Positions 5,141 to 23,038 of a DNA stretch of 64,000 bases are shown piece after piece. The notes under the pieces were generated by a model. It made no database searches and was not told where the DNA came from. It worked only from the letters and a program-made list of their open reading frames with translations. The translations under genes were made by a program, and so were the position numbers. The stretch covers positions 43,267 through 107,266 of IMG/VR virus record IMGVR_UViG_3300031857_000053, one strand, 5' to 3'. The DNA is from a virus. Within the stretch, counting starts at the first letter, position 1; each line of letters begins with the position of its first letter.

Positions 5141-8100
5141 ATGGCAGATGTAATTTCAGAAGATATTAATTTATCTCTTCCAGATCCAGCAAATCTTGCA
5201 GCATCTGTTGCAGGTGGTGTAATGAATCCTCTTCTTAAAGAGTCTATTGATATTGATTTACCACAACCTCCTCCAAGATATCCAGTTGGTGTATCAGCAA
5301 CAAATATGATACCTACTCAGACTAATGCATTAACTGATTCTAATAGTTTAATAGAGCAAAGTAATAATAGTTTAGCAACAGCAAATCAATGGGCTCGTAA
5401 TCCATATCAATATGGTAAGTTAAAAACTTATAATGCTGATTCTGATGGAGCAAACTTTGCAAGATATGCAGCAGTACCTAGAGTGTTTAAAGAACAAGGC
5501 TTTTCTTTATATAGAGATAATGAAGCACTATATAATGAGAATGCTACATGGTGGGATTATTTTAAAAGAAGTGCCGGTGCATCTTGGGAACTATTTAAAA
5601 CAGGGTTTACAGATATGTTACCTTGGAATGCTTGGGATGGTAAATCATCAGATCTTGTAGCAGCAAAAGAGATGGAAAGATGGCACGCAATTGGTGCCGA
5701 TAGTAGATCTGGAGTAGGATCTTTTATAAATAATATGACAGTAGATTCTGGATACACTTTTGGTATTCTTGGTGAATTTGCTGCAGAAGAAATAGCTCTT
5801 TGGGGAGCAACAGCTCTTTCTGGTGGAGCTCTTGGTGAAGTTGCTTTAACAAGAACTGGTAAAAAAATAGATGATGTTATAGATGCACTTAGTATAGAAA
5901 AATTTAGAGCAAAAGTAAATAAAGCTTATGATTGGATGAAGAGTCCTGATAAGATGAAAGATATTTATAGTTATGCTAAAGGAACTCTTAAACGTGCTGG
6001 TAAAACTTTAATACCTCAAACAGGAAGTTTTATAGCTAATGATATCATTGCTGCTGGTAAAAAAGGAGATCTTGTTTTTAATATGGCAAAAGCTTCAAAA
6101 GGATTTGGCGCTTTTTACCGAGATAGTCGAGCTGTAGCTGCAGTTTTATCTGAAGCATCTTTAGAAGGTGGTAGTGCAGAACTCATGGTAAGAGATCAAT
6201 TGATTGATGGATTCTATGATAAAAACGGTAGACTTCCTAATGATAAAGAGATGTCGGCAATTTACAGTGAAGCAGCTAATGCTGGTAGAGAAACATATCT
6301 TTGGAATTTACCAGCTCTTTATATTTCAAATCAAATAGTTTTTGAAACAGCTCTTAAAGGATTTAAACCTGCTGCTGTATTTAGAGAGGAATTAAGAACA
6401 GGATTAAGTGGACGATTGGCTTTTAATGAAGCTTGGAAAAAAGCTGGTGTAAAAGCTTGGACTACTGTTGAAGAAGGAGCACTACAAAGTTTTAAAAATA
6501 TATTTAATCCTACTACATATAAACCTAAAAATCTTTTAAGAAATACTGTTGGTAAATTTGCTCTTTATACTAAAGAAAATTTAGCAGAAGGTTTACAAGA
6601 GGTATATCAAGATGCTGTTCAAAAGACAATGGTAGATTATTATTCTGCTAGATTTACGCATCCTGCTCTTTCTGGATCTAGATCTGTGTGGGGAGAGTTT
6701 GCAAAAAATATTGGTAATCCTAATTTAGAAACTTTTGCATCTGGATTTTTAATGGGATCTATGGTACAGATTCCACAAAAAATTGCTTTTAATTATTTAC
6801 CTAAACAATTTTATAAACTTACAAATAGAGCTGAGTATGATAAAAATATGGCTCTACAACAAGAGCATACCGATAAAGTAGTAGATGCTATGAATTATTT
6901 TACTATGGGTGAAAAGTATTATGATTCTATTAATGAAAATGCGGTAGTTCAATTAAATGGTAATGCTGAAGCTCAACAAGCTAATATGGCTGGTGATAAA
7001 AAAGCTTTTGGTGATATAACAGATGAGACAGAAGGAAATCACTTTATGACTTTACTTGAAAGTGGTAAATTAGATATTCTTGTAGATCAATTTAAAGATC
7101 TTAAAGGTCTTAATAAAGAAGCTTTAGAAGAAGCTTTTGGTCCAGTAGATAAATCTATAGCTGAAGATTCATATACATTTTATCAAAATAGACTTGATAA
7201 CATGATTAAGAAATCTGAACAATTAAAAAAATTATACGAGACTGCAGAAAGAGAAATAGGTGATGGTCCTTTTCATCCTAGTACAGTTGATGGAAAAAAA
7301 GATCCTAAATTATATGAAGCCATGATGCAAGGAGCTATTGCTCACAAGATGGCTAAAAGAGATTTTGTATTACAAAATTATTCTTTCTATAGAACTCTTC
7401 AGAGAGTAGATAGTCTTACTAATAATTTAGTTTCAAATAGTGAGTTAGCTAAAACATCAGCTTCAGATTTAATGTTAGCTACTTCTCCTCAATTGATGGT
7501 CGATGAAATAGCTATTACAAAAAAATTATTAGAAGGTTATAAAACAATTGAAAAAGATCCTGATAATAAATCAAAGATTCAATCACTTGAAGAAAGATTA
7601 GAATATCTAGAAGAATTACAAAGTGCAATAGAAGGTATTACAGTAGCTCAAAAATTAGAACCTAGTAGAGAATTAGGTACTCAAGTAAAAGAAATAGAAG
7701 ATGCTGATAAAGCAGCTAGAATAGATGAAGGTACTGTAGTTAAAAATAAAAAAGGAAAAGAGCATAAAGTATCTTATGTAAAAAAAGGTGATGCATATAA
7801 TAGTAAAGGTGAAAAAATTGGAAAGTTAAAAGATCTTGATATTGTTAGTCAACCGGAAGGCAAAGAGGAAAAAGATGCTATGACATATGCAACAGAAAGA
7901 TTATTCAATGCATATTCACAGTGGATGAAATACTCAGCTAAAGTAAATAACAATGATAATGTAACAGATAGAGCTATTGAAAAATCATTTGCTGATTTCC
8001 GAGATATTTATTTATTAAAACAAGATTCTAAATTTTTAGGTGAAACTATTCAAACTCTTTTAAATCCTAATTATTTTAGAGTATATACTGAAAGATTAAG

Positions 8101-10645
8101 AAATGTTATTGCTGATATAGATAAATCTCGAAAAACTTTATTAAAAAATTCTTATGAAAGATTTTTAAGATTAAGAAAGATGAATGATTTATTCAATCAG
8201 CTTTATGAGATGAAAGTTTTTTTAGATGAGAGAGGAATGCAAGATGTTTTAAATAATCGTGTTCCATCTATATTTTTTAATATTCCTAAAGCTAAAGATA
8301 GTATAACACCAGTATCTTTTGATTCTGAAAAATATAGACAGATCTTAGATTTATTTGAAAAATATGAACAAACATCTGGTAAGCAATTTGAAAATAAACC
8401 AATTGTTGAAGCAATTCCATTTATTAGTGAGACTATCAATTATAATATAGAGAATAGGGAAAAAGGAGAAGATAAAAGAACTTTAGCTGAGCATGCTGCA
8501 TATTGGGGATTTGATCCTGAGATGAAAACTATAACTTCAATTAAAACATTAGATGTTTTAAAAAAGATAGTTGATAGTCCTTATTCTACTTATAAAGAAA
8601 AAGCTTTAGCTAGAAGATTACTTACTATTGTTAAAGCTAATAGTGAAATAAAATTTGAAAAACTTTCACGTCCAAATAAAGCATTATATACCGATGAAGG
8701 AAAAATGGGAATGAGTGTAGATCCTAGATATTCATCTTCTGATTTTGGAATTACAAAAAACTTTTCATTACCTATTGAAGCAATTATTCTTAATACAGTT
8801 ATTAAGGATATTACAGCTTATGATATGTCAAAAAATCTTGCTTTTAAAAATGATGTTGCTAAATTATTTGAAGCAGCTAAAGAAGAATTTAAAAAGAATA
8901 GACCAGCGAATGCTACTTTATTTGGAGATAAAGTTGATTTTGAATTTTATGGTTTAAGAAATCAAGAAGATTTTGTAGCGGAAGCTCTTACTAATGATCG
9001 CTTTGCAACGTGGTTAAAAACTATTGATTATCAAACTACCGGTAAATCTGCGTGGCAAGAACTATTAGATATGCTTAGTCAATTCTTTGCAAAGATTTTA
9101 GGTATATCAAAAGATAATACTCTTTTAGATGAAGTAGTATATGTCGTTACTAAACATATTGATAAAATAGAAGGAGTTACTGAAGATAGTTTAGCTCAAG
9201 AAGCTAAATACAAAGCAGCAACTCAAGCTGGGACAAATGTTCCAGGTGGTATATCTAAAGATAGTACTATTAACGAACTTGCTGCAGCAGGTGTTTTAAA
9301 AGAACTTGTTGCTGATTACAAAAGAATTAATAGTGAGAGACAAGTTGTAGCTCCAGATTCTGTATACGATCCACTTTATGATCAGCGTCCAGAGTCAGAG
9401 CTTATTGAAACTGAAGGATTCAAAAGATATCTTGACTCTACATCAGCAAGTAATATTATTAGTGCTCACAATAGAAAGAAAGGTATTACTCCATCAACTA
9501 CAATAACTACTCCTACTACTACTCCTGTTTCTGATATAGAAGCTAAGAGAGCTGATATAGAAAAAAGAAGAAAAGAAAGTCTAAATGCTATTAAACAAAG
9601 ACCTAATGAAACTTTGTTTACAGCTCCTTATTATAAAGAAGGATATAATTTTAAACAGCTTCCTACAGACTCAGCTATGAGAACTGAAGCTGAAGAAAAA
9701 GAATATTATGAAATATTAAAAAACAATAATGCGTTAACTGATGTATCTATTCAAGTTAAAACTAGAGAGGAGGCTGAAAAATTAATCAACGCTAAATATG
9801 ATACAGAACTAGCTGCTTTAGAAAAAGCTCCTGTTACTACTGTTGATACAACACCAGTTAATAAAAGAACTAAAGAAAGACTTCTTACTAAAGGTTATAA
9901 TTATTCTGATATTGATAGTATGAATCAGCAACAAGCTGAAGCATTATTAGTAGAAGGATATACTAAGAAAGAAAAACTAGAAGCTATAGCTGCAGAAGAA
10001 GAATTGCAAAAACAAATTAAACGCGAAAAAGAATTACTTACTAAGGTTGAATTAATGGCATCTATTATAAAAGATATTAATGAAGCTGAATATTTAACTG
10101 ACCTTGCTGCTGTACAAAATAGAGTTTCAGATATTATTAATCGTACTCCAGGTGTTTTAGATATAAATGCAATAGAAAGAGGAATTGAGTCTAAGAAAAA
10201 ATCACTTAGTGCTAATATTGCTTTAGATAAAATGATTGTTAATGAGTTTATTAGATTAGATAACAATCAATTAGTAAAAGTAATTGAAATAAATAATAAT
10301 GGTATTAAAGTACAAACTACAGGAAAAATAGAAGATGGTGCTTCTCAAGTTGAATTTTGGATTAACAAAAAACAATTTGATAAAGATCAAAGAGAACCAA
10401 ATAAAAGATATGTTATGTATAAAGATCAACCAGGTATAGAAGAAGTCACAGGTATACCGGTAACTTCACAAGAAGATGTTGAATCTACAAAAGAGAATGT
10501 TACTAGTGCTAGAACATTAGTTTCTGATGAAGATTTACAAAATGAATTTAAAGAAGTAGAATCTCAAGAAATAGTTGATCTAGAAAAGGATTTTCTTGAT
10601 ACCTTAGATCAGTGTTTACCGGGTAGTCAACTTTCCATTTTTTAA
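5141..10645 (+). CDS. Giant virion cargo protein (1834 aa) with hydrophobic Gly/Ala segments and a degenerate zincin-like domain
   Basis: FGILGEFAAEEIALWGATALSGGALG and ENLAEGLQE segments. YGLRNQEDFVAEALTNDRF resembles a zincin C-terminal motif, but the HExxH is missing. Confidence 0.65.
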   Translation: MADVISEDINLSLPDPANLAASVAGGVMNPLLKESIDIDLPQPPPRYPVGVSATNMIPTQTNALTDSNSLIEQSNNSLATANQWARNPYQYGKLKTYNADSDGANFARYAAVPRVFKEQGFSLYRDNEALYNENATWWDYFKRSAGASWELFKTGFTDMLPWNAWDGKSSDLVAAKEMERWHAIGADSRSGVGSFINNMTVDSGYTFGILGEFAAEEIALWGATALSGGALGEVALTRTGKKIDDVIDALSIEKFRAKVNKAYDWMKSPDKMKDIYSYAKGTLKRAGKTLIPQTGSFIANDIIAAGKKGDLVFNMAKASKGFGAFYRDSRAVAAVLSEASLEGGSAELMVRDQLIDGFYDKNGRLPNDKEMSAIYSEAANAGRETYLWNLPALYISNQIVFETALKGFKPAAVFREELRTGLSGRLAFNEAWKKAGVKAWTTVEEGALQSFKNIFNPTTYKPKNLLRNTVGKFALYTKENLAEGLQEVYQDAVQKTMVDYYSARFTHPALSGSRSVWGEFAKNIGNPNLETFASGFLMGSMVQIPQKIAFNYLPKQFYKLTNRAEYDKNMALQQEHTDKVVDAMNYFTMGEKYYDSINENAVVQLNGNAEAQQANMAGDKKAFGDITDETEGNHFMTLLESGKLDILVDQFKDLKGLNKEALEEAFGPVDKSIAEDSYTFYQNRLDNMIKKSEQLKKLYETAEREIGDGPFHPSTVDGKKDPKLYEAMMQGAIAHKMAKRDFVLQNYSFYRTLQRVDSLTNNLVSNSELAKTSASDLMLATSPQLMVDEIAITKKLLEGYKTIEKDPDNKSKIQSLEERLEYLEELQSAIEGITVAQKLEPSRELGTQVKEIEDADKAARIDEGTVVKNKKGKEHKVSYVKKGDAYNSKGEKIGKLKDLDIVSQPEGKEEKDAMTYATERLFNAYSQWMKYSAKVNNNDNVTDRAIEKSFADFRDIYLLKQDSKFLGETIQTLLNPNYFRVYTERLRNVIADIDKSRKTLLKNSYERFLRLRKMNDLFNQLYEMKVFLDERGMQDVLNNRVPSIFFNIPKAKDSITPVSFDSEKYRQILDLFEKYEQTSGKQFENKPIVEAIPFISETINYNIENREKGEDKRTLAEHAAYWGFDPEMKTITSIKTLDVLKKIVDSPYSTYKEKALARRLLTIVKANSEIKFEKLSRPNKALYTDEGKMGMSVDPRYSSSDFGITKNFSLPIEAIILNTVIKDITAYDMSKNLAFKNDVAKLFEAAKEEFKKNRPANATLFGDKVDFEFYGLRNQEDFVAEALTNDRFATWLKTIDYQTTGKSAWQELLDMLSQFFAKILGISKDNTLLDEVVYVVTKHIDKIEGVTEDSLAQEAKYKAATQAGTNVPGGISKDSTINELAAAGVLKELVADYKRINSERQVVAPDSVYDPLYDQRPESELIETEGFKRYLDSTSASNIISAHNRKKGITPSTTITTPTTTPVSDIEAKRADIEKRRKESLNAIKQRPNETLFTAPYYKEGYNFKQLPTDSAMRTEAEEKEYYEILKNNNALTDVSIQVKTREEAEKLINAKYDTELAALEKAPVTTVDTTPVNKRTKERLLTKGYNYSDIDSMNQQQAEALLVEGYTKKEKLEAIAAEEELQKQIKREKELLTKVELMASIIKDINEAEYLTDLAAVQNRVSDIINRTPGVLDINAIERGIESKKKSLSANIALDKMIVNEFIRLDNNQLVKVIEINNNGIKVQTTGKIEDGASQVEFWINKKQFDKDQREPNKRYVMYKDQPGIEEVTGIPVTSQEDVESTKENVTSARTLVSDEDLQNEFKEVESQEIVDLEKDFLDTLDQCLPGSQLSIF

Positions 10646-10663: not shown

Positions 10664-13600
10664 ATGATTTGTAATTTAGCTAATAATGAATCTTATAAAC
10701 CTTTCCGAAAATATATCTTTAAAAAGTTATCTCTAGCTCCAGAAGGTTTTACATTAGAATCTTTTACTAAAGATATCTATAGAAAAGTATATGATAATAC
10801 TACTGGTACTCCTGAAGATAAACATGCTAATGCTATTAATCATGTTGCAATAGGAACTATATTTTTAAATCGTATTCAAGCATTAGAACCTTCAGTTTAT
10901 GATACTATTAAAGATATAGATTTTAATAAATTTATAAAACTTGTAAATAATATTAGTAAATCAGAACCTGATTTTTCTTCATTAGAAGAAATGTTAGGTT
11001 TGAAAAATAATCCTGTTGAAGAACTTAAAGAACTTAATGCTGCAGCTGCTGAATCTAGAGATAACAGTACAGCGGGTATACAGATGACATTATTTGAAGG
11101 TAGCGATATTAAAGTTAACGAAGAAGATGAACCAGCTGATACCACAAATAATAATATGGTAACTGCTACTGAAGAATATCAAGGTAAAGATACTGTTCAA
11201 GCGGATCAAGATAGAGAAACTATAAATATAGATAATCCTAAATCTCCAGATTATTATAAAGCGAATCCTTTATATAGATTTTATTATAAAGTTAAAAGAG
11301 GTGTTTTAAAATTATTACAAAGACCAGGAACTAATTTTGATAGTTCTCAAATTACTATTCCTTATAATGGAAAGAAAGGTGTATACTTAACAGTAATGAG
11401 TTCTAGTAAATTAAGTAGAGATGATTTTAAAGAAGATCCTACAATAGGAGGTAGCAATGATAAAAAGTTTATTTACGATGCTGGTGAACCAGTGTTTGTT
11501 TTAACTGATGTAGATGGTATTCCAGTTAAGTTTAATGAAGAAGGTCAATTTGATGAAAATGGTAAATTATCTTATCATAAATTTAGAAATATTTATTCAA
11601 CTCAAGTAAAAGATGGTAAAGTTTCTTTATACAAAAGTGCTAATCTAAATGCTTTAGATGATGTAAAAAGAGTAGATCTTTTAAAACAAAAATTAATGAA
11701 GCTTAATCCAGGGCTTAGTGAAAAAAATGCTAAAGCTCAAGCTGAAAAAACAATACTTGATCAACTTCAAATTATATATGATATTAGACAAGCTCTTAAA
11801 GCTAATCCAAATTTAATAGTTAAGACTGTTATAAATGGTGGTTCAATGGGAGCTGTAAAAAAAGATATGAGTGTCAAAACACCTCTTGAGAATTTAACAA
11901 TAGGTAATAGAGATTTTACTATTTATGCTGTAAAAAGTGATAGCGAAAATTCTGGATACACTTATACTAACACTGATGCTACAGGTTCTTATGATGTTGA
12001 AATAACTCGTCCTGATATTAGTCAAGTTGAAGGATTAACAGATACAATTGTTTCTATATTATTTGATAAAGGTATAAGTAAAGATAAAGGAGTTTCAAAA
12101 GCTATTACTGCTGAAACTAGAAAAGAATTATTACAAAATTATATATTTACTAGAACTGAAGGTTTAGATATGTTTGTTAATGAAGATGGTGGGTATACTG
12201 TTAAAATAGGAGGACAAGAAATTTATAGATTAAAAAATAAAAATTATACTTCAGTTGAAGAAGCTGCTCTTCTTGAAAAAAGAAAAAGTGCTGAAAAATT
12301 AGTTCGAGAATATTTTACTACGCTTGCTCCTCAAGCTGAGATCTTAGAAAAAGATCTTAATGATGTTGACATGAAAAATATAATTGAAGGAACTATTGAT
12401 AAAGTTAGAGATCAATTTAAAAAAGGATATGTTTTTTATAATACAGAAAATAAAAAGTATTATAGAATAGGTTATCCTATACATCATATTAATGCTAAAT
12501 ATCAAAATGCTACTTATCCTGGTTTAACTCTTTCTAAAGAAGGAAACAATACAATATTTACAATTGATCGTAATGCTTCATATAATAACTATATAAAGAA
12601 AAATTTTACAATACCTTTTGAGTTAAATGAGAGTGGAGAGATTCCATCTCTTAATGCTTTTTATACTTATGAGTATGCTGAGGGTGAATTAAATAAAATA
12701 TATAAGCCAGCTGAATCTACATCAGCTCAACCATCTACTAGTGTTAAACCTGCTACTAGAAAAACATACTCTGGGAAAGTAACTAAGTTGACACTTAATC
12801 AAATATTTGTATTTGGAAGTAATCCTGAAGGAAGACATGGTGCTGGTGCTGCTAAAGATGCTAAAGATTTATTTGGTGCAAAGTATGGACAAGGAAGAGG
12901 GATGCAAGGTCAATCTTATGCACTTGTAACTAAGAATCTTAAAGCTGGATTTGTTGAACCTAGCACAGGTATAACATATAAAAAAGCAGGAGAAAAGAGT
13001 GTTTCAAAAGAACAAATAATTGAAAACATAAAAGAGCTATATTCAGTTGCTAAAGAAAATACAAATAAAGAATTTTTAATACCTGATTACTCTAAAAGCA
13101 ATCTTAATGGTTATACAGGTCAAGAAATGGCAGATATGTTTAGTGCTGCTGGACCTATACCAAATAATATTGTGTTTCATAAAAACTTTGATAAATTAAT
13201 TACTACTCAACCATCTACTAGTGTTAATCCATTAGTAGAAGCAGGAATTAAACCTTCTGATATGTTTGGTAATGCTGCTAAAGATATTCAGATGGCATCT
13301 GAATCTACTCAGTTTATTGGATTTGGTACAATAATGAAAGAAGGTAATGTATCTTCTACAGATAAATATGCTAAAGCTTGGGGTACTAAAGCTAATACAG
13401 GAGTGTATACAGCTGGTGATACTATAATGGTATCAGGAAGTGGTAACTTTGGTAGAGGAGGTGTTGATAAAACTGTTGAAGCACAAGCTATTAGAAAAAC
13501 ACTTAGTGAAAAATATAAACCTTTATTAGATAAGGCTATAGAAGCAGGTGCATCTTTTAGAATTGGTAATCAATATGCAAAAGGTAATTTGTCAGATCAA

Positions 13601-16600
13601 TTAGTTGCAGATTATTTACAAAAAAAGGGTTATACTGAAGAAAAACTTAATGGTTATTCTAGATGGGTATCTCCTACCAAAACTACTCAACCATCTACTA
13701 GTGTTAATAAAGGTGTAGAAATATCTTCTAATGCTAAAGGTTTAGCAGCGGCACTCACTAATCCTACAGAGTTAGCTAAATCAAAAGGTAATATTAAACA
13801 ATCTTATCCTATATATTTTCAATGGTTAGATAAAAATGGAGAAGTAAGAGATTCAAACTTTAAAGATGTTGAACAAGCTTATCAAAAATTAAAAGATAAT
13901 TCTGAAGCTAAAACAAAACCTACTAAAGAAAATAGTAATAATTATAAACTAATGGTAGATTTGATAAAAGCTAAATTAGAACAACATCCCAGATTAGTTT
14001 TAGAAATAACTAAACAAGGAGGTTCAGCTTGGATATTATCTTCTACACATCAACCAACTAAACAAAATACTGTTTGGGAAACAGGTGGACAAAACTGGTT
14101 TATTCAAGCTCTCAATGATGCTTATTTATCTACACAACCATCTACTAGTGTTTCTGTAGATACTAAAGCTGATATTACTTTACCTACTACACCTGATCAA
14201 CAAAATACTAATTCTATTGATCAAGCTCTTAATATTATTGATGATGCAATTAATAATTTTGATAAACTTAAAGCTTTAAAACTTATTGATCAAAAAGCTA
14301 CAGTAGAACAAATAGAAGCAGCTAAAAAGTGGTGGGAAAACCATCCTATGTCTAGTAAAATTCCGCTCTATGTTTTATTCAATGCTGTTAATACTAAAAA
14401 TCCAACATCAATTGCTAATTGGACATTAGATGGTATTACACTATATCAAGGTGCTGATTACTCTGATTTGTATCACGAAGCATGGCACGGGTTTACTCAG
14501 ATGTTTTTAACTAAAGAACAGAAAGAAAATCTTTATAAAGAAGTAGGAAAAAAATCTGGTGGTTTTACAGATTATAAAGGAAACTATACTTTATTTAAAG
14601 ATGCTAAACCAAAACAACTAGAAGAATATTTAGCTGAAGATTTTAGAAATTATATGTTATCTGGAGGTAAGAAGATTGCTGGTAAAGCTCCTGTTAGAAA
14701 TAAAATTTTTAAGTTTATTGCTGATATATTAGAATGGTTATTTGGAAATCTTACAAGAGAACAAATAGCTAATGGTACAGAAAGCTTAAGCACTATTCAT
14801 GACTTATATGAAAAACTTCGTGTAGGTAATCTTAGTGAGTATACTTTCTCTCAAAGCAATGCTCAATATGATAAGCTTAGTAAAGGAGAGATTTTAGCTA
14901 CAAGAAATACTGATAAACCTGTTGACGATATAGATACTAAAAACTATATCTTAAATATGGTTGATTCTTTTTTATCTCAATATGTTGATAGAGTTTCTGA
15001 AGGAAAAAGAAAAAAATATATTGCTAATGCTAGACTTCAAGCTGAAGCTAGAGGAGAAACTTTTGTAGAATCTACAGCAGAACTTTCATATAAATATACC
15101 GCAACATTATTAAAAACAGCAGAAGGTAGAAAGTTAGCTTATGGTTATGCTCAAGAAATGATTAAAGCTATTCATGATGGACTTGTATTATTACAACAAA
15201 ATGAAAGTAGTGAAATTATTCGTGCTAATAGAAAAAAAATAATTGATACTTTAAGTTGGACTTATAATAACTTTGGAGATATAAATAATCTTAAAAATAA
15301 TAAGATAGATAAGGAGGGTAGATTTCAAAATGTTATTGCGTTTCATACTGCTAAAAGTAGATTATTTACTAAACAAGAAAAAGAACTTTTCTTTAGTGAA
15401 GATGCGCTTAATGAAGAAGATTTATTTTTAATTGGAAGAGATGGTTTAGGAAGTGTAGGTGGTAATGAAAAATCATCTAAAGAATTAGCATCAGAAGATA
15501 TCCTTATTATGATGAATAGTTTACATGAGGTAGATGCTAAAGGTAATACTATATATGTAGAAGGAACTGAAGTTGAAATAGAAACTAAACAAGGTGTTAA
15601 GCTTAAGATAGGTGTACCTAAGCTTCAAGATTTTGATGTTACTTGGAATATTCTATCTAAGAAATTAGAAAATAATCAAGATGCTGAGAACATGTACGCG
15701 ATCTTAAGTGATCTTGCAAAGTCAAAACCTAATCTTCCATTTAAACAATTATTAAATAAACTTGGTCCAATAAAAACTGCGGGATCAGCAGAGTTTAGAT
15801 TATGGACTAATTTTTGGCAAACTTTTAATTTATCTAGAGTTGGTTTAGTATATACTAAAGTTAATATAACAACTAAAACAGAGAGTAAAGGTGAGGTTAA
15901 AGAATTAAATTTTGATAATTGGGAATTTACAGCTAGACCTACTAAAGCTACCACTAGTATAAATACAATTAAAAAAAATTGGGATTATGCTTTTAGAATG
16001 AAAGATAAAGGTGATTATATCGGTAAAGATTCTCTTGGACAAAATTATCTTTTATTAGATAAGATTTTAGAAGATTTTAAAGATAATATAAAAGGAAAAG
16101 AATTTGAGTTTTTTAAAGCAATAGGTATAGATTTTGATACAAATAATGAAGATATTCTTAAAGAAGTTTCTTCTAAAAATTCTTTAGATACAGCTAAAAG
16201 AATTTATAATATTATTAAAGCTTTATCTAATGCTAAATATAAAGAAGAACCTCTTATAGGAAAACCTAAATATACTATATATGCTCCATCTCAATTATTT
16301 AAAGAAATATATGAAATAGGTGAAGATAAACAATATGTTTGGAAAGATAAATTTGAAATAGATTCTCAAGGTAATAGACGTAAAGTAGGAACTGAAAAAA
16401 AATTTTTAGTAGATATAGGTTATAAAACATCAGGAGAAGGAACAAGATTTGATAACTTAGCTGAAATTCAAGCTGAGTATTCTGATAAATGGGGAACTAA
16501 TCAAGTTACAAATGCAGAAGGTAATACTCAATTTGATTTAACATTAAATAATTTTCTTACTGTTTTAAAGAATACACTTAATCAAGTACAAGATGTAAAA

Positions 16601-19600
16601 GATGCTAACGGCAAAGTTATTATACCTGCATATAAAGTTTTAATTAGTCTTCCATGGATGAGTAATTTAGATGTAGATAAAAATCCAGATGCTGAGTCTT
16701 CTATTTTATTAAATTCTTTATTTGATCTTAATAAAAATAGTACAAAATATGGTGAAAGAATAAAAGATGAAAAAACTAAATCTGGATATGTAGAAGTACA
16801 ATTAAAAAATCTTAGTGGAGTAGCATTTAATAAAGATGATGTTTATGATGAAAAGAAATCTACTTCTTTATTTAATTCAGATCCTTTAACAAAACTAGTA
16901 GCAGATTTTCATACTGGTTTGATGAATGGAAATTTTGAGTTAATGCGTCACTCAGATAAAGGAACATCTTTTAGTTTCTTTACTACTTCTTTAGATAAAA
17001 AGAATATTAATAATAGAAATAAATATTTATATGTTGATACTGCAGATTTTGTTACAAGTTTAGGAACAAAGAATGCTATTAATAAATATATTTTTCCAAC
17101 TTTAAATTCAGAATTTAAGCGAATAAAAAAGTTTAGAAATATTAAACAAGCAGTAGAAGATGCTAGAAAAGAAACTGATCCGGAAAAAAAGAAGGATATG
17201 TTTAAAGCAATTGGTAATACTGATTTTAATTATATAGAAAAAGGATCTTCTTTTGTAACATTTCAAGGTGTTTTATCTCCAGAAACTAAAGTAAAAATAC
17301 TTAAGCAACTAGATAAAAATAGTTTAACAGAATACTTAAATACTCCAGAAGGTTTTGAATTAAAAGTTGAAATTGGAAAAGATATTCAAAATTATTTTAA
17401 TAATCAAATTGAAGCTGTAAGTAAAAAGTTTCCTGTTAGAAGAAGTGGTGTTAAACTTATAAGTGGTGATATTATTAAAAAAATAAAAGATCATGTTACA
17501 GCTAATTATACTGAAGGATTAGGTCTTTCACAAACAGGAAAAGATATACTTAGAAATACTGATTTTAATAAAGTAGCTTTAAGATCTTTTGTAATTAATT
17601 CTTGGATACATAATACTGAAAGTATCAAATTAGTTTATGGAAACCTTGCTCAATATAATATGGCTAAGGAAGAATTTCATAAGAGAAATGCTGGTTCAAG
17701 TTCTACTGGTACACTTTATAGAACTGATAAAGCTGCAATGGATTATGTAAATAATATTCTTAATGGTGGTGATACATATGCTAAATCAATAGGACAAACT
17801 AATAGATATTATGATGGAACTCTTAATACAGCAATTGTACAAGATAGTGTTCAAAGATCTGTTTATATAGAAGATTATTCTAAAGACTTAATTGCTGAAC
17901 AATTAAAAAGAAATGGTGGAAATCAACGAGAAGCTGAGAAAAAAGTTTTTGGTTACGATGAAAAAAATAATAAAGTTGGTACTCTAGAAAAACCAATTAA
18001 GGGTGGATTAATTACAGCATATACTGATATGAAAGAAGGAGATGGTCAAGGTTGGGTAACTTTTGATTCATATAGAATGCTATTAAACTTAGAAGGTAAG
18101 TGGTCAGATTCACAAGAAAATTTATATCAAAAAATAGTAAAAGGTGAACAAGTTTCTAGTGCTGATATAGCTTTCTTTTTTCCTCCACAAAAGTTACAAT
18201 ACTGGGGACCTCTTGGTAACAGATTATCTGGTAAAGCTGCAATAGGACAAAAGATTAATTCTGATGTACAGCTTACAGCTATGCACAAGTTTTCTTTAGT
18301 ACCACTTATTCCTACTGTAATTAAAGATAAAAGAATTCAAAAGCTCCACGATAAGATGGTTCGAGAGCAAGTGGATTATGTAACATTTGAATCCGGATCA
18401 AAGATTAGTAATATTACAAGTGCTGAAAAGTTTGGAGAGAATGGCAAACAAACTTTTGATCTTTTTTACGCAGATAATAAGCGTAATATTAGTGAGGAAC
18501 CATTTACAATCAATCCTATTTATGTAAACTATTTAAAGAATCAGTTAGAGATAGCACCTAAGTTTAAAAAGAAAGTAACTTTTTCTACTCAGCTTAGAAA
18601 ACTTATTGAAGATGGTTTAGTAGAGAATGGTGTGCCAATTGATTTTGGAAGAAATTTATCTCGTGAAAAAAGAATTGAAGCTTGGGATGCTATTACAACA
18701 GAAGATGCTAAGATGGCCGCATCTCCTAAGTATAAGATCTATAAAACATATGAGAATAAATTAAAGAAACTTACCGAGCTTAAAAGAGATCAACTTTTAG
18801 AAGAGATGGGTTGGAAGATGGTGAATGGTAAACCAGTTGGTACAATAGAGAACTTAGTTAGATTTGTTAAAGCTGAATTAGAAAGACAAAATTTAGGAGA
18901 TCATGAAATAGATTTCTTAGATGTAGTTGATGGTGGTACAAAGCTTAAAACAGATGCTTCATTTTCTTTGTCTGCAGATAAGATTGAAAAGTTACTTAAT
19001 TCTATTGTAGTAAATAGATTGATCAAACAAAAAATTAATGGTGAAGCTTTAATCCAAGTATCTACTGCTGGTTATGAAAATAATGAAGCTTGGGATGCAG
19101 CAAGAGGTGCTACTGAAGAAGAGTTAGAAAAGTGGGGAACAGATGATCTTCCTACTTATAGAAAAGGAAAAGATGGAATTACTAAAGCAATGAAAGTGAA
19201 AGTTGCTTTACAAGGAAAGTTTTTATCTCTACTTAATCTTAATCATAATGATGGTCAAACTATAGCTGTTTATGATATTGTTAATGGTAAAAAAGTTCTT
19301 AATCTAGAATCATCTAGAACAAGACTTAATTCCATGATTAAAAATGAAGAGTGGTTAAATAAAGAAAATCATCGTAAGATGATTACTATGGTTGGTGTTC
19401 GTATTCCAGTACAAGGATTAAATTCTATGGAGTTTATGGAAGTATACGAATTCTTACCAGAGGAAGCAGGTAATATTATTATACCTCCAACAGAGATTGT
19501 AGCTAAATCAGGAGCTGACTTCGATATCGATAAGCTTACAGTGATGATGCCTAATATAAAAACCAAAATAAATAAAGCTAAAATTACTAATGCTTTATTA

Positions 19601-22600
19601 AGAGAACTTGGTGAAAAAAATCCAACTTTAGATTTTAGTAGAGATAATATTAATATGCTACTTGATTTTGAAAAAGGATCTGGTGGCGCATATACTCTTA
19701 CCGAAGAAGATTTAAATACACTTCGTATTCTAGAAGAAACTAGTGAAGTAAGTGTAGTTTATCCTACTGGAGATAATTCTATAGAAGGATTAGAGAATGA
19801 TCTTATTTGGAATATAAAAGATATTTTAGCATTGCCGGAAAACTTTGTTAATCTTATTACACCTAATAGTACTGATACAGTTCAACCAATTGCTACTAAA
19901 CTTGCACCTTTAGTTAAAGATTATGATCAGATGCAGAAAACAGCTGGTGATATTACTACTTTATCTAAAGAAGATCAAGCTTTATTAAATGAGAATCCTA
20001 ATGTGATGGAAGGAACTAGAGTATTGGAAATACTTTATAATATTTCTAAGCAACAGTATAATCAGATTGGTAAAGAGACTTTAGGTATTGGAGCTGTAGA
20101 TAATACTTTCAATATTCTATTGAATAGAATTGGAGCTTATATGAATGCTTATGCTACTGTAAAATCATTTAATGGTAAAAATAAAACTACAATTAGACAA
20201 ACATTAAAGTTTAAACATAATACTCTTAATATAAATGGTCAAGATGTTATTTCTTTATCGCATTTATACGATAATAATGATTTAAATAGAGTTTCAGATA
20301 TTATCTCTCAAATGATGAATGGTTGGGTGGACGTTGCAAAAGATGCTTGGATTTTTGATATTCAAGGTAACAAGGATCTTTCTCCTACACTTTTGTTTAT
20401 GATTCAAGCGGGTGTCTCAATAGAGAATGCTATTTATATGGTTTCTCAACCTATGGTAAGAGAATATATAAGATTAAAGAAGACCGCTCAAAGTAGTGTA
20501 TCAGATGTTATTACTGATGTTGATACTAAATATCCAGGTTTTGCAGCAAAGAAAATGATCATTGATAAATACTTTTCACAAGATGCAGATTTTGGTTCTC
20601 AAATTGCTGCAGCAAATGATATTATAAATGATGAAGTACGTGAAAAAAAATTAAATGCGATCTATGGTAATGTTAATGTCGCTAATACTAGTGCTGAAAT
20701 TATAAATAGAGTTTTTGGTGATAATGATATTGATACTAAAAAGATGGAAGAGAATATTCAAAAATATTCTGCTGCTGAAAAAAATGGAGAAGATACTAAT
20801 AAATTATTGTTTAATGATGAATATCAAAAAGCTATATTTTTACATTTCTTACAGATAGAACAGATGGGATCTGCTCTTACTAATGTTAAAAAGAATATGA
20901 ATTTTGACACTAAAAAAGATGCTAGTATCTATGAGGCACAAAATAGAATGGTTATGATTGATGCTCTTTCAAAAGAAGATCGATTCCCATCAAAGATGAT
21001 AGATAAACTTATTACAGATTCTCCTATATCAAGTTTCTATATACAAGAATTTCAAACACAGATTTGGGAAAAATTATTACCACTTCGAACTAATGAAGTA
21101 TTTAATAAATGGTTAAGTGGTAAGATGGGTGATCAAGACTTTAAAAATTATGTTGAAGAGAATTTTGGAGAAAATATGATGGAAAAAGCTATTCTTTCTT
21201 TGAGAAATAATCTTGTACCATATATATTTCAAAATGAACTTAAACAATTTGATTTAAGAACTTTAGATGGATATAAAGGAAACATAGTTGAAATAAGTGA
21301 AAAAGGAGAAACAGAACAAGAAAATCTTACTAAAAAACAACAAAAAGAAGGAGTTAGTGTTCTAAGTATTGGAGCTTTCTTTAAAGATGGAAAAATGTTT
21401 ATTGATAAAAAAAGTTTAGATAATCAATATAACAATGCTTCTTATTTAGGTAATGAAAATAGCACTTATAAAGAATTAGGATTAGCACCAGTTAGTGTTG
21501 GAACTTTTAGTTCTTTAAGCGAATATCATCACTTTGTAGTAGAGAGAGAATATCTTAGAAATCTATATAAGAATACAGATAATGTTAAAGATAATATAGA
21601 ATACAAAGAAGCTCTTAATGATGCTTTTGAAAAAAATCCAAAAGGAGAAGAAAGTGAAGATGCGTATAAAAAAAGAATAAGTAAAATTGCTTTTGAAAGT
21701 TTCTTAAGAGATAAAGCTTTAGATAATATATTTAATAATACAAAATTATTTACAGGGAATAAAACAGCTGCAGATAAATTAGGTTATATAAAATCTCAGT
21801 ATAAAGATCTTTTACAAACATATCCTGTATTACAAGTTCTTAATCCTTTATCTACAATATCTGCCGGTAAACTTTATTCTAATATACAATTACAAGATAA
21901 CTTAGATGATTCAGAAAAAGTTAATTCTTATTATAAAAATATTAGAGATCTAGCAGATCCTACCGTGGTAAAAGTTCCTGGAGATCCTGAAGCTAATAAA
22001 TATATAAGTGATTTCTTTACTAGTTTACCTATTATTGGAACATTACAATCAGGTTCTAATACTAAAACTAGATCTTCTTTTACTAGATTAATGCCTTATG
22101 ATTTATATCTAAGATTAATTGAAAAACCTGCTCAAAAATATGTTGAAAATATGAGTGATCTTTTATTAGATGTTTATTATTATAAGTGGTCTCAGCAAAA
22201 TTCAATCTTAAATAAAAATAAAAATAAGTTTGAAGATTATTATATTACTGAAATTACTTTAGATCGTCTTTTAAAAAGTTCTAGAAAAAATCTTGATAAA
22301 GTAGAAATAGAAAAACAAATTAGAGGTTTACAAGATAAAAATCAAAGATTTGGATTAAGAGAAACTGAAGATATTTTTTATAAACAACCTAGTGGAGCAA
22401 GTATACTTGATACATATAAACTACTTAAAAGAGATGATAAAGAAACTGATGAAAGCTATAATCCTAGAAAAGTTAAATATATGCGCGAGTTATTAGAAGC
22501 TAATCCTGATAAGATTTTTGTTTATAATAATGAGAAAGGTCTTGATAGATCTATACCTAAACAGGGAACATCAGATAGGTTATTTAGAAATCAAGGGCAA

Positions 22601-23038
22601 TCTAATGCTTTTGGATTGAATACTTATAATCAATATAATCTTACAGAAACTACTTTTATTAAAGATGTTGATGGTGATGTTAATCCTAATTTTAAAATAG
22701 ATTTTGATGCTCAAGTAAAAGAATTACTTCGTCTTCAAAATGAAGAAGGAAAAGAAATAGTTTTTCCATCATCTGGATTTTTACAAGAACAAATGGGTTA
22801 TCAATTAGAAGAATCTAATTCTTTAGGTAAGAATACTTATAGTTCTATAGTAGAAAAAAAATTAGGACAAAAAACTTACGAATATGCTTCTCAAGTTTTA
22901 TTTGAGAAATTTGGCTACGTTAATAGAAATTACGATATTACACCCATTGGAAAATTAGTAATAGGAGCTAAACAAAAAGAAAGTAAATCTATTAGTGATG
23001 AAATGGTTAGAGATTTAATGTCACATTGTTATTCATAA
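10664..23038 (+). CDS. Virion-packaged single-chain DNA-dependent RNA polymerase (phi14:2 gp66-like) with N-terminal accessory domains and zincin
   Basis: RIPVQG...KSGADFDIDKL catalytic motif (DFDID at 19517-19531), EEFHKRNAG, DGQGW and NGWVDVAKD segments. HEAWH at 14474-14488 plus EEYLAEDF. 4124 aa. Confidence 0.9.
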   Translation: MICNLANNESYKPFRKYIFKKLSLAPEGFTLESFTKDIYRKVYDNTTGTPEDKHANAINHVAIGTIFLNRIQALEPSVYDTIKDIDFNKFIKLVNNISKSEPDFSSLEEMLGLKNNPVEELKELNAAAAESRDNSTAGIQMTLFEGSDIKVNEEDEPADTTNNNMVTATEEYQGKDTVQADQDRETINIDNPKSPDYYKANPLYRFYYKVKRGVLKLLQRPGTNFDSSQITIPYNGKKGVYLTVMSSSKLSRDDFKEDPTIGGSNDKKFIYDAGEPVFVLTDVDGIPVKFNEEGQFDENGKLSYHKFRNIYSTQVKDGKVSLYKSANLNALDDVKRVDLLKQKLMKLNPGLSEKNAKAQAEKTILDQLQIIYDIRQALKANPNLIVKTVINGGSMGAVKKDMSVKTPLENLTIGNRDFTIYAVKSDSENSGYTYTNTDATGSYDVEITRPDISQVEGLTDTIVSILFDKGISKDKGVSKAITAETRKELLQNYIFTRTEGLDMFVNEDGGYTVKIGGQEIYRLKNKNYTSVEEAALLEKRKSAEKLVREYFTTLAPQAEILEKDLNDVDMKNIIEGTIDKVRDQFKKGYVFYNTENKKYYRIGYPIHHINAKYQNATYPGLTLSKEGNNTIFTIDRNASYNNYIKKNFTIPFELNESGEIPSLNAFYTYEYAEGELNKIYKPAESTSAQPSTSVKPATRKTYSGKVTKLTLNQIFVFGSNPEGRHGAGAAKDAKDLFGAKYGQGRGMQGQSYALVTKNLKAGFVEPSTGITYKKAGEKSVSKEQIIENIKELYSVAKENTNKEFLIPDYSKSNLNGYTGQEMADMFSAAGPIPNNIVFHKNFDKLITTQPSTSVNPLVEAGIKPSDMFGNAAKDIQMASESTQFIGFGTIMKEGNVSSTDKYAKAWGTKANTGVYTAGDTIMVSGSGNFGRGGVDKTVEAQAIRKTLSEKYKPLLDKAIEAGASFRIGNQYAKGNLSDQLVADYLQKKGYTEEKLNGYSRWVSPTKTTQPSTSVNKGVEISSNAKGLAAALTNPTELAKSKGNIKQSYPIYFQWLDKNGEVRDSNFKDVEQAYQKLKDNSEAKTKPTKENSNNYKLMVDLIKAKLEQHPRLVLEITKQGGSAWILSSTHQPTKQNTVWETGGQNWFIQALNDAYLSTQPSTSVSVDTKADITLPTTPDQQNTNSIDQALNIIDDAINNFDKLKALKLIDQKATVEQIEAAKKWWENHPMSSKIPLYVLFNAVNTKNPTSIANWTLDGITLYQGADYSDLYHEAWHGFTQMFLTKEQKENLYKEVGKKSGGFTDYKGNYTLFKDAKPKQLEEYLAEDFRNYMLSGGKKIAGKAPVRNKIFKFIADILEWLFGNLTREQIANGTESLSTIHDLYEKLRVGNLSEYTFSQSNAQYDKLSKGEILATRNTDKPVDDIDTKNYILNMVDSFLSQYVDRVSEGKRKKYIANARLQAEARGETFVESTAELSYKYTATLLKTAEGRKLAYGYAQEMIKAIHDGLVLLQQNESSEIIRANRKKIIDTLSWTYNNFGDINNLKNNKIDKEGRFQNVIAFHTAKSRLFTKQEKELFFSEDALNEEDLFLIGRDGLGSVGGNEKSSKELASEDILIMMNSLHEVDAKGNTIYVEGTEVEIETKQGVKLKIGVPKLQDFDVTWNILSKKLENNQDAENMYAILSDLAKSKPNLPFKQLLNKLGPIKTAGSAEFRLWTNFWQTFNLSRVGLVYTKVNITTKTESKGEVKELNFDNWEFTARPTKATTSINTIKKNWDYAFRMKDKGDYIGKDSLGQNYLLLDKILEDFKDNIKGKEFEFFKAIGIDFDTNNEDILKEVSSKNSLDTAKRIYNIIKALSNAKYKEEPLIGKPKYTIYAPSQLFKEIYEIGEDKQYVWKDKFEIDSQGNRRKVGTEKKFLVDIGYKTSGEGTRFDNLAEIQAEYSDKWGTNQVTNAEGNTQFDLTLNNFLTVLKNTLNQVQDVKDANGKVIIPAYKVLISLPWMSNLDVDKNPDAESSILLNSLFDLNKNSTKYGERIKDEKTKSGYVEVQLKNLSGVAFNKDDVYDEKKSTSLFNSDPLTKLVADFHTGLMNGNFELMRHSDKGTSFSFFTTSLDKKNINNRNKYLYVDTADFVTSLGTKNAINKYIFPTLNSEFKRIKKFRNIKQAVEDARKETDPEKKKDMFKAIGNTDFNYIEKGSSFVTFQGVLSPETKVKILKQLDKNSLTEYLNTPEGFELKVEIGKDIQNYFNNQIEAVSKKFPVRRSGVKLISGDIIKKIKDHVTANYTEGLGLSQTGKDILRNTDFNKVALRSFVINSWIHNTESIKLVYGNLAQYNMAKEEFHKRNAGSSSTGTLYRTDKAAMDYVNNILNGGDTYAKSIGQTNRYYDGTLNTAIVQDSVQRSVYIEDYSKDLIAEQLKRNGGNQREAEKKVFGYDEKNNKVGTLEKPIKGGLITAYTDMKEGDGQGWVTFDSYRMLLNLEGKWSDSQENLYQKIVKGEQVSSADIAFFFPPQKLQYWGPLGNRLSGKAAIGQKINSDVQLTAMHKFSLVPLIPTVIKDKRIQKLHDKMVREQVDYVTFESGSKISNITSAEKFGENGKQTFDLFYADNKRNISEEPFTINPIYVNYLKNQLEIAPKFKKKVTFSTQLRKLIEDGLVENGVPIDFGRNLSREKRIEAWDAITTEDAKMAASPKYKIYKTYENKLKKLTELKRDQLLEEMGWKMVNGKPVGTIENLVRFVKAELERQNLGDHEIDFLDVVDGGTKLKTDASFSLSADKIEKLLNSIVVNRLIKQKINGEALIQVSTAGYENNEAWDAARGATEEELEKWGTDDLPTYRKGKDGITKAMKVKVALQGKFLSLLNLNHNDGQTIAVYDIVNGKKVLNLESSRTRLNSMIKNEEWLNKENHRKMITMVGVRIPVQGLNSMEFMEVYEFLPEEAGNIIIPPTEIVAKSGADFDIDKLTVMMPNIKTKINKAKITNALLRELGEKNPTLDFSRDNINMLLDFEKGSGGAYTLTEEDLNTLRILEETSEVSVVYPTGDNSIEGLENDLIWNIKDILALPENFVNLITPNSTDTVQPIATKLAPLVKDYDQMQKTAGDITTLSKEDQALLNENPNVMEGTRVLEILYNISKQQYNQIGKETLGIGAVDNTFNILLNRIGAYMNAYATVKSFNGKNKTTIRQTLKFKHNTLNINGQDVISLSHLYDNNDLNRVSDIISQMMNGWVDVAKDAWIFDIQGNKDLSPTLLFMIQAGVSIENAIYMVSQPMVREYIRLKKTAQSSVSDVITDVDTKYPGFAAKKMIIDKYFSQDADFGSQIAAANDIINDEVREKKLNAIYGNVNVANTSAEIINRVFGDNDIDTKKMEENIQKYSAAEKNGEDTNKLLFNDEYQKAIFLHFLQIEQMGSALTNVKKNMNFDTKKDASIYEAQNRMVMIDALSKEDRFPSKMIDKLITDSPISSFYIQEFQTQIWEKLLPLRTNEVFNKWLSGKMGDQDFKNYVEENFGENMMEKAILSLRNNLVPYIFQNELKQFDLRTLDGYKGNIVEISEKGETEQENLTKKQQKEGVSVLSIGAFFKDGKMFIDKKSLDNQYNNASYLGNENSTYKELGLAPVSVGTFSSLSEYHHFVVEREYLRNLYKNTDNVKDNIEYKEALNDAFEKNPKGEESEDAYKKRISKIAFESFLRDKALDNIFNNTKLFTGNKTAADKLGYIKSQYKDLLQTYPVLQVLNPLSTISAGKLYSNIQLQDNLDDSEKVNSYYKNIRDLADPTVVKVPGDPEANKYISDFFTSLPIIGTLQSGSNTKTRSSFTRLMPYDLYLRLIEKPAQKYVENMSDLLLDVYYYKWSQQNSILNKNKNKFEDYYITEITLDRLLKSSRKNLDKVEIEKQIRGLQDKNQRFGLRETEDIFYKQPSGASILDTYKLLKRDDKETDESYNPRKVKYMRELLEANPDKIFVYNNEKGLDRSIPKQGTSDRLFRNQGQSNAFGLNTYNQYNLTETTFIKDVDGDVNPNFKIDFDAQVKELLRLQNEEGKEIVFPSSGFLQEQMGYQLEESNSLGKNTYSSIVEKKLGQKTYEYASQVLFEKFGYVNRNYDITPIGKLVIGAKQKESKSISDEMVRDLMSHCYS
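12728..14152 (+). repeat. Four identical 18-bp direct repeats CAACCATCTACTAGTGTT (QPSTSV) delimiting three in-frame domain modules
   Basis: Copies at 12728-12745, 13208-13225, 13688-13705 and 14135-14152. Periods are 480, 480 and 447 bp. Confidence 0.95.

Follow-up and report, generated by a model that had tools for sequence, protein, structure and literature searches.

Macrodomain, Rossmann-like and NADAR-like cassettes in a crAss-like virion RNA polymerase: probable ejected tools against ADP-ribose-based defences

An array of three accessory cassettes is carried by a giant virion protein encoded in the IMG/VR virus record IMGVR_UViG_3300031857_000053, of which a stretch of 64,000 nucleotides (nt; record positions 43,267-107,266, one strand), hereafter the window, was analysed. 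The carrier is an open reading frame (ORF) of 4124 amino acids (aa; window positions 10664-23038, + strand), which a single open frame and a match to gene g066 of Cellulophaga phage phi14:2 identify as a crAss-like virion RNA polymerase (vRNAP) with accessory domains, that is, a polyvalent protein. The three cassettes, which fold independently, probably act as ejected tools against host ADP-ribose-based defences, and the array as a whole is probably a single sample of a cassette pool traded by crAss-like phages among their ejected giant proteins.

The array spans residues 689-1163, in the N-terminal third of the ORF, where four copies of the linker QPSTSV flank modules of 154, 154 and 143 aa. 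All four linkers (12728-12745, 13208-13225, 13688-13705 and 14135-14152, + strand) are encoded by the same 18 nt, CAACCATCTACTAGTGTT, which occurs in four mismatch-free copies in the window and in none of 100 shuffles of it. Between them, on the same strand, lie module 1, a TARG1/DarG-type macrodomain of the A1S_2505 family (12746-13207), module 2, an alpha/beta Rossmann-like domain that is not detectably a SLOG (13226-13687), and module 3, a minimal phage-type NADAR-like domain (13706-14134). The initial annotation of this DNA had placed three cassettes at 12746-14134 and quoted a motif for each; this span runs exactly from the first residue past the first linker through the last residue ahead of the fourth, and the motifs are equally exact and all in frame in the one ORF. 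With regard to the linkers, a role of QPSTSV as a strict protease site is unsupported, as the linkers of relatives are loosely similar TQP(S/T)-rich stretches with no fixed motif.

Each module is a real domain family that is conserved separately, modules 1, 2 and 3 being met independently in 49, 48 and 57, respectively, of the giant proteins checked. Scans of the modules with Pfam, PHROGs, NCBIfam and PADLOC named only module 1, and a single-sequence phmmer search against the PDB gave only spurious matches, to designed helical repeats.

Module 1 is a macrodomain according to its predicted structure, with TARG1/DarG as the nearest class. The sequence matches the N-terminal domain of NCBIfam NF049995, the 'A1S_2505 family phage non-structural protein', with 98.3 bits against a cut-off of 45 (2.9e-28, profile positions 1-109 covered), as well as phrog_2072 (4.8e-30). 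No Pfam family, Macro included, was matched at E<=10, and it is the fold that places the module among the macrodomains. The AlphaFold2 (AF2) model, made from a 29-sequence alignment (pLDDT 93.6), has the three-layer alpha/beta/alpha macro fold. A Foldseek search of the PDB with this model ranked TARG1 first (E 5e-4, TM 0.61-0.67), followed by alphavirus macrodomains, with a probability of 1.0 for both. The VIA fold search, which is independent of Foldseek, retrieved 26 representative chains at a Z score of at least 8, predominantly macrodomains and including DarG (Z 9.9). A second look with VIA gave 174 chains at Z of at least 8; TARG1 came top (Z 11.4, 129 residues, 18% identity), DarG scored Z 10.0 and macrodomains predominate among the matches listed. 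The macro/A1pp-like motif proposed earlier for this module is thus borne out at the level of the fold, where TARG1/DarG-type macrodomains lead. In the 29 sequences of the family, F23, G24, N26, G29, G34, A36 and T62 are invariant, and T62 is followed, at the end of a strand, by a lysine (K63) in 23 of them, including that of this phage; K63 is a plausible equivalent of the catalytic lysine of TARG1 and DarG. The family is also common as a stand-alone 'hypothetical protein', present in 422 GenBank phages.

Module 3 is likely a remote, shortened, phage-type member of the NADAR superfamily, as indicated by profile comparisons. Neither Pfam NADAR (PF08719) nor Phage_30_3 (PF08010) was reached at E<=10, and PHROGs and NCBIfam were likewise silent. 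The nearest clusters in an Atlas feature search were NADAR and Phage_30_3 (score 0.89), which is a lead only. When the PDB (177,635 sequences) was searched by hmmsearch with a 45-sequence profile of the module, NADARs took the first two ranks, namely 8bau (E 0.009) and E. coli YbiA, 2b3w (E 0.087). Moreover, hhalign aligned this profile over 111 columns with the PF08719-positive NADAR cassettes of related giant proteins at 85.8% probability (E 5e-6); as controls against the same cassettes, module 1 reached 0.2% and module 2 0.0%. In this alignment, the NADAR motifs fall into register. An invariant LTNP matches the LSNF-type start, and the stretch YP-x-F-G-x-Y-x-D-x-E-x-AYQ-x-x-K holds E56 and K63, whose E-x6-K spacing equals that of E88/K95 in the NADAR of E. 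coli C7 (PMC11543638) and of E36/K43 in T4 AdfN (PMC11825919). Conservation is nearly complete at the motif positions, with E56, H115 and W124 present in 45 of 45 sequences and K63 in 43. Phage NADARs have a His in place of the catalytic Glu of the YbiA subfamily (PMC11543638), and the invariant H115 therefore fits this variant. Module 3 thus has the catalytic residues expected of a NADAR, a Glu, a Lys and, at the second position, one of Glu, Asp or His. The earlier assignment to NADAR/YbiA holds as remote superfamily homology, supported by the hhalign and PDB rankings, and needs amending in that the domain is minimal, missed by Pfam and devoid of the adenine- and pyrophosphate-binding segment. 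The family also includes 462 stand-alone proteins of about 130 aa, none of which is annotated, and some are fused to DUF4326. A precedent for its possible function is T4 gp30.3, or AdfN, a phage NADAR that strips DarT1 ADP-ribose off phage DNA (PMC11825919).

The initial annotation had tentatively read module 2 as SLOG/YspA-like, and this reading is not supported. No Pfam or NCBIfam SLOG family matched it at E<=10, the Atlas search was empty, and neither PF10686 nor PF06908 was found anywhere in the virus record. The AF2 model (pLDDT 93.4) consists of a beta-alpha-beta-alpha-beta-alpha unit and, after it, a beta hairpin; a five-stranded Rossmann-like sandwich of this kind, in which conserved polar residues follow strands 1 and 3, is compatible with many families. 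Foldseek returned nothing below E 0.018 from either the PDB or BFVD. VIA, in both its wide and its second-look search, reached at best Z 5.4-5.5, for class I methyltransferases, which lies below the usual chance level, with no SLOG among the matches listed. Genuine SLOG cassettes (cpYpsA, PF12694) do adjoin module 2 in related giant proteins, such as P0143 (residues 302-393) and P0080, and hhalign of module 2 against them gave 0.1%. By these profile comparisons, SLOG belongs to the cassette pool as a module distinct from module 2.

A whole-library profile search at E<=1e-3 gave 454 representatives of the module 2 family, among them stand-alone forms with 116-150 aa and numerous multidomain carriers; a fusion to DUF4326 (E 1.2e-14) is present in one relative. 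G32, Y48, A56, N57 and Y61 are invariant in the family, and S43-S44-T45, D65 and an acidic residue at 124 are nearly so. In the AF2 model, the conserved residues follow strands 1-3, an arrangement also seen in ligand-binding Rossmann-like domains. A tblastn search of 50,697 GenBank phage records with modules 2 and 3 gave no match. Stand-alone module 2 genes of Sphingomonadales are surrounded only by an SSB gene and small unannotated ORFs. In a Novosphingobium profundi contig (L100), for instance, the stand-alone homologue (3893-4372) lies within small genes on the same strand, including SSB, a gene run that recalls a conjugative element's leading region or a prophage early region.

The virus record that encodes the carrier has 107,266 bp, an estimated completeness of 91% and a guanine-cytosine content of about 30%, and its giant ORFs follow one another on the + strand, with lengths of 1180, 1834, 4124 and 2293 aa. 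In a tblastn search, the C-terminal half of the 4124-aa ORF matched phi14:2 g066, the 'Catalytic RNA polymerase subunit' (E 3e-20); this half also matched virion proteins of Flavobacterium phages and crAss-like genes annotated as 'putative RNA polymerase'. The RNA polymerase core, delimited by homology and motif, lies at 17564-22243 (+ strand) and contains GADFDIDK, a metal-site-like motif of the DxDxD type, at residue 2952 (19517-19531). The protein thus shows both the homology to phi14:2 gp66 and the DxDxD-type motif by which crAss-like vRNAPs are recognised. It further combines, within one ORF, the polymerase core with a macrodomain, a NADAR-like domain, an unassigned domain and an HExxH motif, as expected of a polyvalent protein, and its relatives additionally carry ADP-ribosyltransferase (ART), AlkB-like, helicase, RNase H and SLOG domains. 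The ORF has only two cysteines, one close to either end. Its last ~180 residues (22500-23038; IFVYNNEKG...NAFGLNTY) look like an extra small domain beyond the polymerase core, and this segment had no library match.

The vRNAP subunits of cultured crassviruses belong to the cargo proteins, which the capsid holds until they are ejected in a partly unfolded state, either along with the DNA or before it (PMC10136315). Because of these data and the homology to the phi14:2 vRNAP, the 4124-aa protein is expected to be delivered into the host, most likely together with the DNA. The same two lines of evidence lend support to the earlier suggestion that the domains are tethered to an injected RNA polymerase, the injection of this particular protein being predicted by analogy.

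The array is inserted in an inter-domain linker relative to related proteins, and its cassettes have been exchanged. Relatives of the site were retrieved with the segment directly downstream of the array and are 30-49% identical. The flanks are joined directly by a short linker, with zero cassettes, in two of them (L103 and L118), and a single module-2-like cassette stands at the array site in two others (L106 and L107). The cassettes of the 4124-aa protein share 75-91% identity with copies in proteins that are only 23-40% identical in the polymerase core. Moreover, copies are carried by homologues of the 1834-aa cargo protein encoded in the neighbouring upstream gene (window 5141-10645); P0012, P0023, P0028, P0066, P0078 and P0086 are such homologues, of 4600-6000 aa, whose C-terminal cassettes reach 90% identity. 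The cassettes are therefore carried by more than one ejected protein. At least one of the three modules is borne by each of more than 800 giant proteins, and in this set the modules occur independently and mostly close to the C-termini. Their neighbours in giant proteins are ART-PolyVal, NADAR, AlkB-like, RecD-like helicase, RNase H, DUF7831 and cpYpsA domains. The polymerase core is shared with the 4124-aa ORF by 102 of the ~145 proteins longer than 1500 aa that were compared. A bolder and rather doubtful proposal is that module 2 founds an undescribed enzyme family, without an evident relative among solved structures, that is injected and acts on ADP-ribose- or nucleotide-derived defence molecules, and that the DNA-identical, TQPST-type linkers are recombination joints for reshuffling between cargo proteins.

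As for how the cassettes may work, the polymerase would be made late, packed into the capsid and ejected before or with the DNA, as is established in other crassviruses. The cassettes would thereby be in the cytoplasm ahead of any phage gene expression. There, either still tethered or cleaved off, the macro and NADAR-like modules would most likely remove DarT-type ADP-ribose from DNA or degrade ADP-ribose-derived molecules of the host defence, and this protein would be expected to hydrolyse ADP-ribose. Several observations fit such a role. The families of modules 2 and 3 both include fusions to DUF4326, which has been proposed to process ADP-ribose; the tie of module 2 to the ADP-ribose network is one of context only. 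Virion-packaged Macro and NADAR proteins have been argued to counter signals derived from nicotinamide adenine dinucleotide (PMC9503650). In addition, a DarG2-like macro antitoxin has been reported from chimalliviruses, and AdfN and DarG2-like macro proteins counter DarTG.

A number of points weigh against this explanation. The lysine that follows T62 in module 1 gives way to Leu or Val in six of the 29 family members, and its correspondence to the catalytic K84 of TARG1 and K80 of DarG is presumed from the sequences. Module 2 is without an assignable function. The PADLOC models, those of DarG and ThsA included, gave no relevant match. Packaging, ejection and activity in this phage are steps that we infer. 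Furthermore, the alignment of module 3 to the NADAR cassettes leaves a gap at a middle segment of ~30 residues, which in PnNADAR carries K75, R79, Y84, D86, W89 and R93, the contacts to adenine and pyrophosphate (PMC11543638); ADP-ribose may therefore not be the substrate of this module. Finally, phage Macro and NADAR domains have been argued to target mainly small ADP-ribose derivatives and not modified DNA (PMC9503650), so that the substrates may belong to either class.

The next gene provides the ground for a different explanation, which appears unlikely, in which the eraser domains serve an ART of the phage itself and limit or reverse self-inflicted marks on phage DNA, the polymerase or other cargo. 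This gene, the 2293-aa ORF (23042-29923), holds an ART-PolyVal-like segment at residues ~265-420 (23834-24301), recognised by jackhmmer from a PF18760-positive relative (independent E-value 6e-8). ART-PolyVal (PF18760) is frequent among the related giant proteins, and ARTs are the commonest protein-modifying domains in polyvalent proteins (PMC5512222). However, Pfam makes no ART-PolyVal call on the 2293-aa ORF, and in the segment R and F occupy the first and second of the published H-Y-D positions, so that it may be inactive. In addition, many carriers of macro or NADAR-like cassettes have no ART on record.

The composition of the cassette pool, which also holds AlkB-like oxygenases, RNase H and helicases, is in line with a role of the modules outside defence-related ADP-ribosylation, in processing by-products that arise from RNA repair or from nucleotide metabolism, for example the ADP-ribose-1''-phosphate of KptA-type tRNA repair or N-glycosides of the riboflavin-pathway type. 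Macro, NADAR and 2H domains have been tied to RNA repair, and YbiA-type NADARs of E. coli act on riboflavin intermediates (both PMC9503650). Nonetheless, the 4124-aa ORF showed neither an RNA ligase nor a KptA or 2H domain beside the cassettes, and carriage by an ejected protein suggests that the modules are required within the first minutes of infection rather than later, so that this role is rather improbable. That the modules are non-catalytic, serving as readers that dock the polymerase on ADP-ribosylated or nucleotide-bound targets, as spacers or as structural ballast for packaging, is likewise improbable: many macrodomains do only bind their ligand, module 3 is without the canonical ADP-ribose-binding segment and the candidate catalytic lysine of module 1 is not universal, yet all three families show strong conservation of the putative active-site residues, and all of them also occur as small stand-alone proteins, which argues for autonomous activity.

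Apart from the array, the 4124-aa protein has an HExxH motif, HEAWH, at residue 1271 (14474-14488, + strand), ~100 aa past the array. It lies in YHEAWHGFTQMF and is conserved in relatives, YHEAWH(G/A/H)F being strictly kept in all 12 of those inspected, which are 30-49% identical. The region has no Pfam match; from its sequence, it may be the site of a zincin-like peptidase. A zincin-like peptidase domain accompanies N4-type vRNAPs in polyvalent proteins, and the N4 vRNAP is reported to be packaged unprocessed (PMC5512222). The neighbouring 2293-aa protein has a LysM peptidoglycan-binding motif at residues 1952-1977 (E 1.3e-5), which fits an ejected protein that penetrates the cell wall.

If the cassettes are indeed active and ejected, ADP-ribose erasers would enter the cell before transcription, closing the window for defences of the DarTG or Thoeris type. 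The polyvalent-protein strategy would then extend to the virion polymerase of the crAss type, which belongs to one of the most abundant phage groups, and counter-defence modules would be traded as cassettes between ejected proteins. Furthermore, Pfam misses two of the three families, the NADAR-like one with its 462 stand-alone relatives and that of module 2 with its 454 representatives, both of which offer concrete targets for biochemistry.

Injected multidomain polyvalent proteins, counter-defence by phage Macro and NADAR domains, and the association of Macro, NADAR, SLOG and DUF4326 have all been published; no description of macro or NADAR domains on a crAss-type vRNAP was found in the literature searched. 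The closest parallel to the overall architecture is found in the polyvalent proteins, including the N4-like vRNAP fusions, described by Iyer, Burroughs, Anand, de Souza and Aravind in 2017 (PMC5512222), where a giant virion-associated RNA polymerase is likewise combined with unrelated enzymatic domains. An HExxH motif next to the polymerase, ART-type domains in the family and predicted delivery with the DNA are also common to both. In contrast to the N4 system, the carrier here is a two-barrel, crAss-type vRNAP and not a T7-like N4 polymerase, and the cassettes are placed at an internal site between DNA-identical linkers. The text of the 2017 paper makes no mention of macro, NADAR or SLOG domains (PMC5512222).

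The domain content resembles the viral Macro-NADAR-SLOG-DUF4326 associations reported by Iyer et al. in 2022 (PMC9503650), both in the pairing of a macro with a NADAR-like domain and in the DUF4326 fusions of the module 2 and 3 families. According to that work, such domains usually occur in phages as proteins of their own, whereas here they are fused into a vRNAP, and the third partner is no recognisable SLOG. With regard to the polymerase itself, the carrier shares with phi14:2 gp66 a homologous core (E 3e-20) and a DFDID-type motif. The length of gp66, 2180 aa, is about half of the 4124 aa found here.

At the level of the single modules, module 1 is most similar to the macrodomains of TARG1 (C6orf130) and DarG (PDB 2l8r, 4j5r, 5m3e and 5m3i), to which its model aligns with Z 10-11.4 over 125-129 residues and a root-mean-square deviation of ~3 Å, sharing the lysine-bearing strand end and a glycine-rich loop 1. 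It differs from them in an identity of only 16-18% and in the lack of a Pfam Macro match. Module 3 is comparable to T4 AdfN (PMC11825919) and to the DarG1 NADAR antitoxins (PMC11543638) in the order of its NADAR motifs, the catalytic Glu-x6-Lys and the phage-type His. Unlike these proteins, it stays under the Pfam thresholds for NADAR and Phage_30_3 and is ~30 aa shorter in the ligand-binding middle. Furthermore, T4 AdfN is the product of an early gene, whereas module 3, by analogy with other crassviruses, would ride into the cell in an ejected polyprotein.

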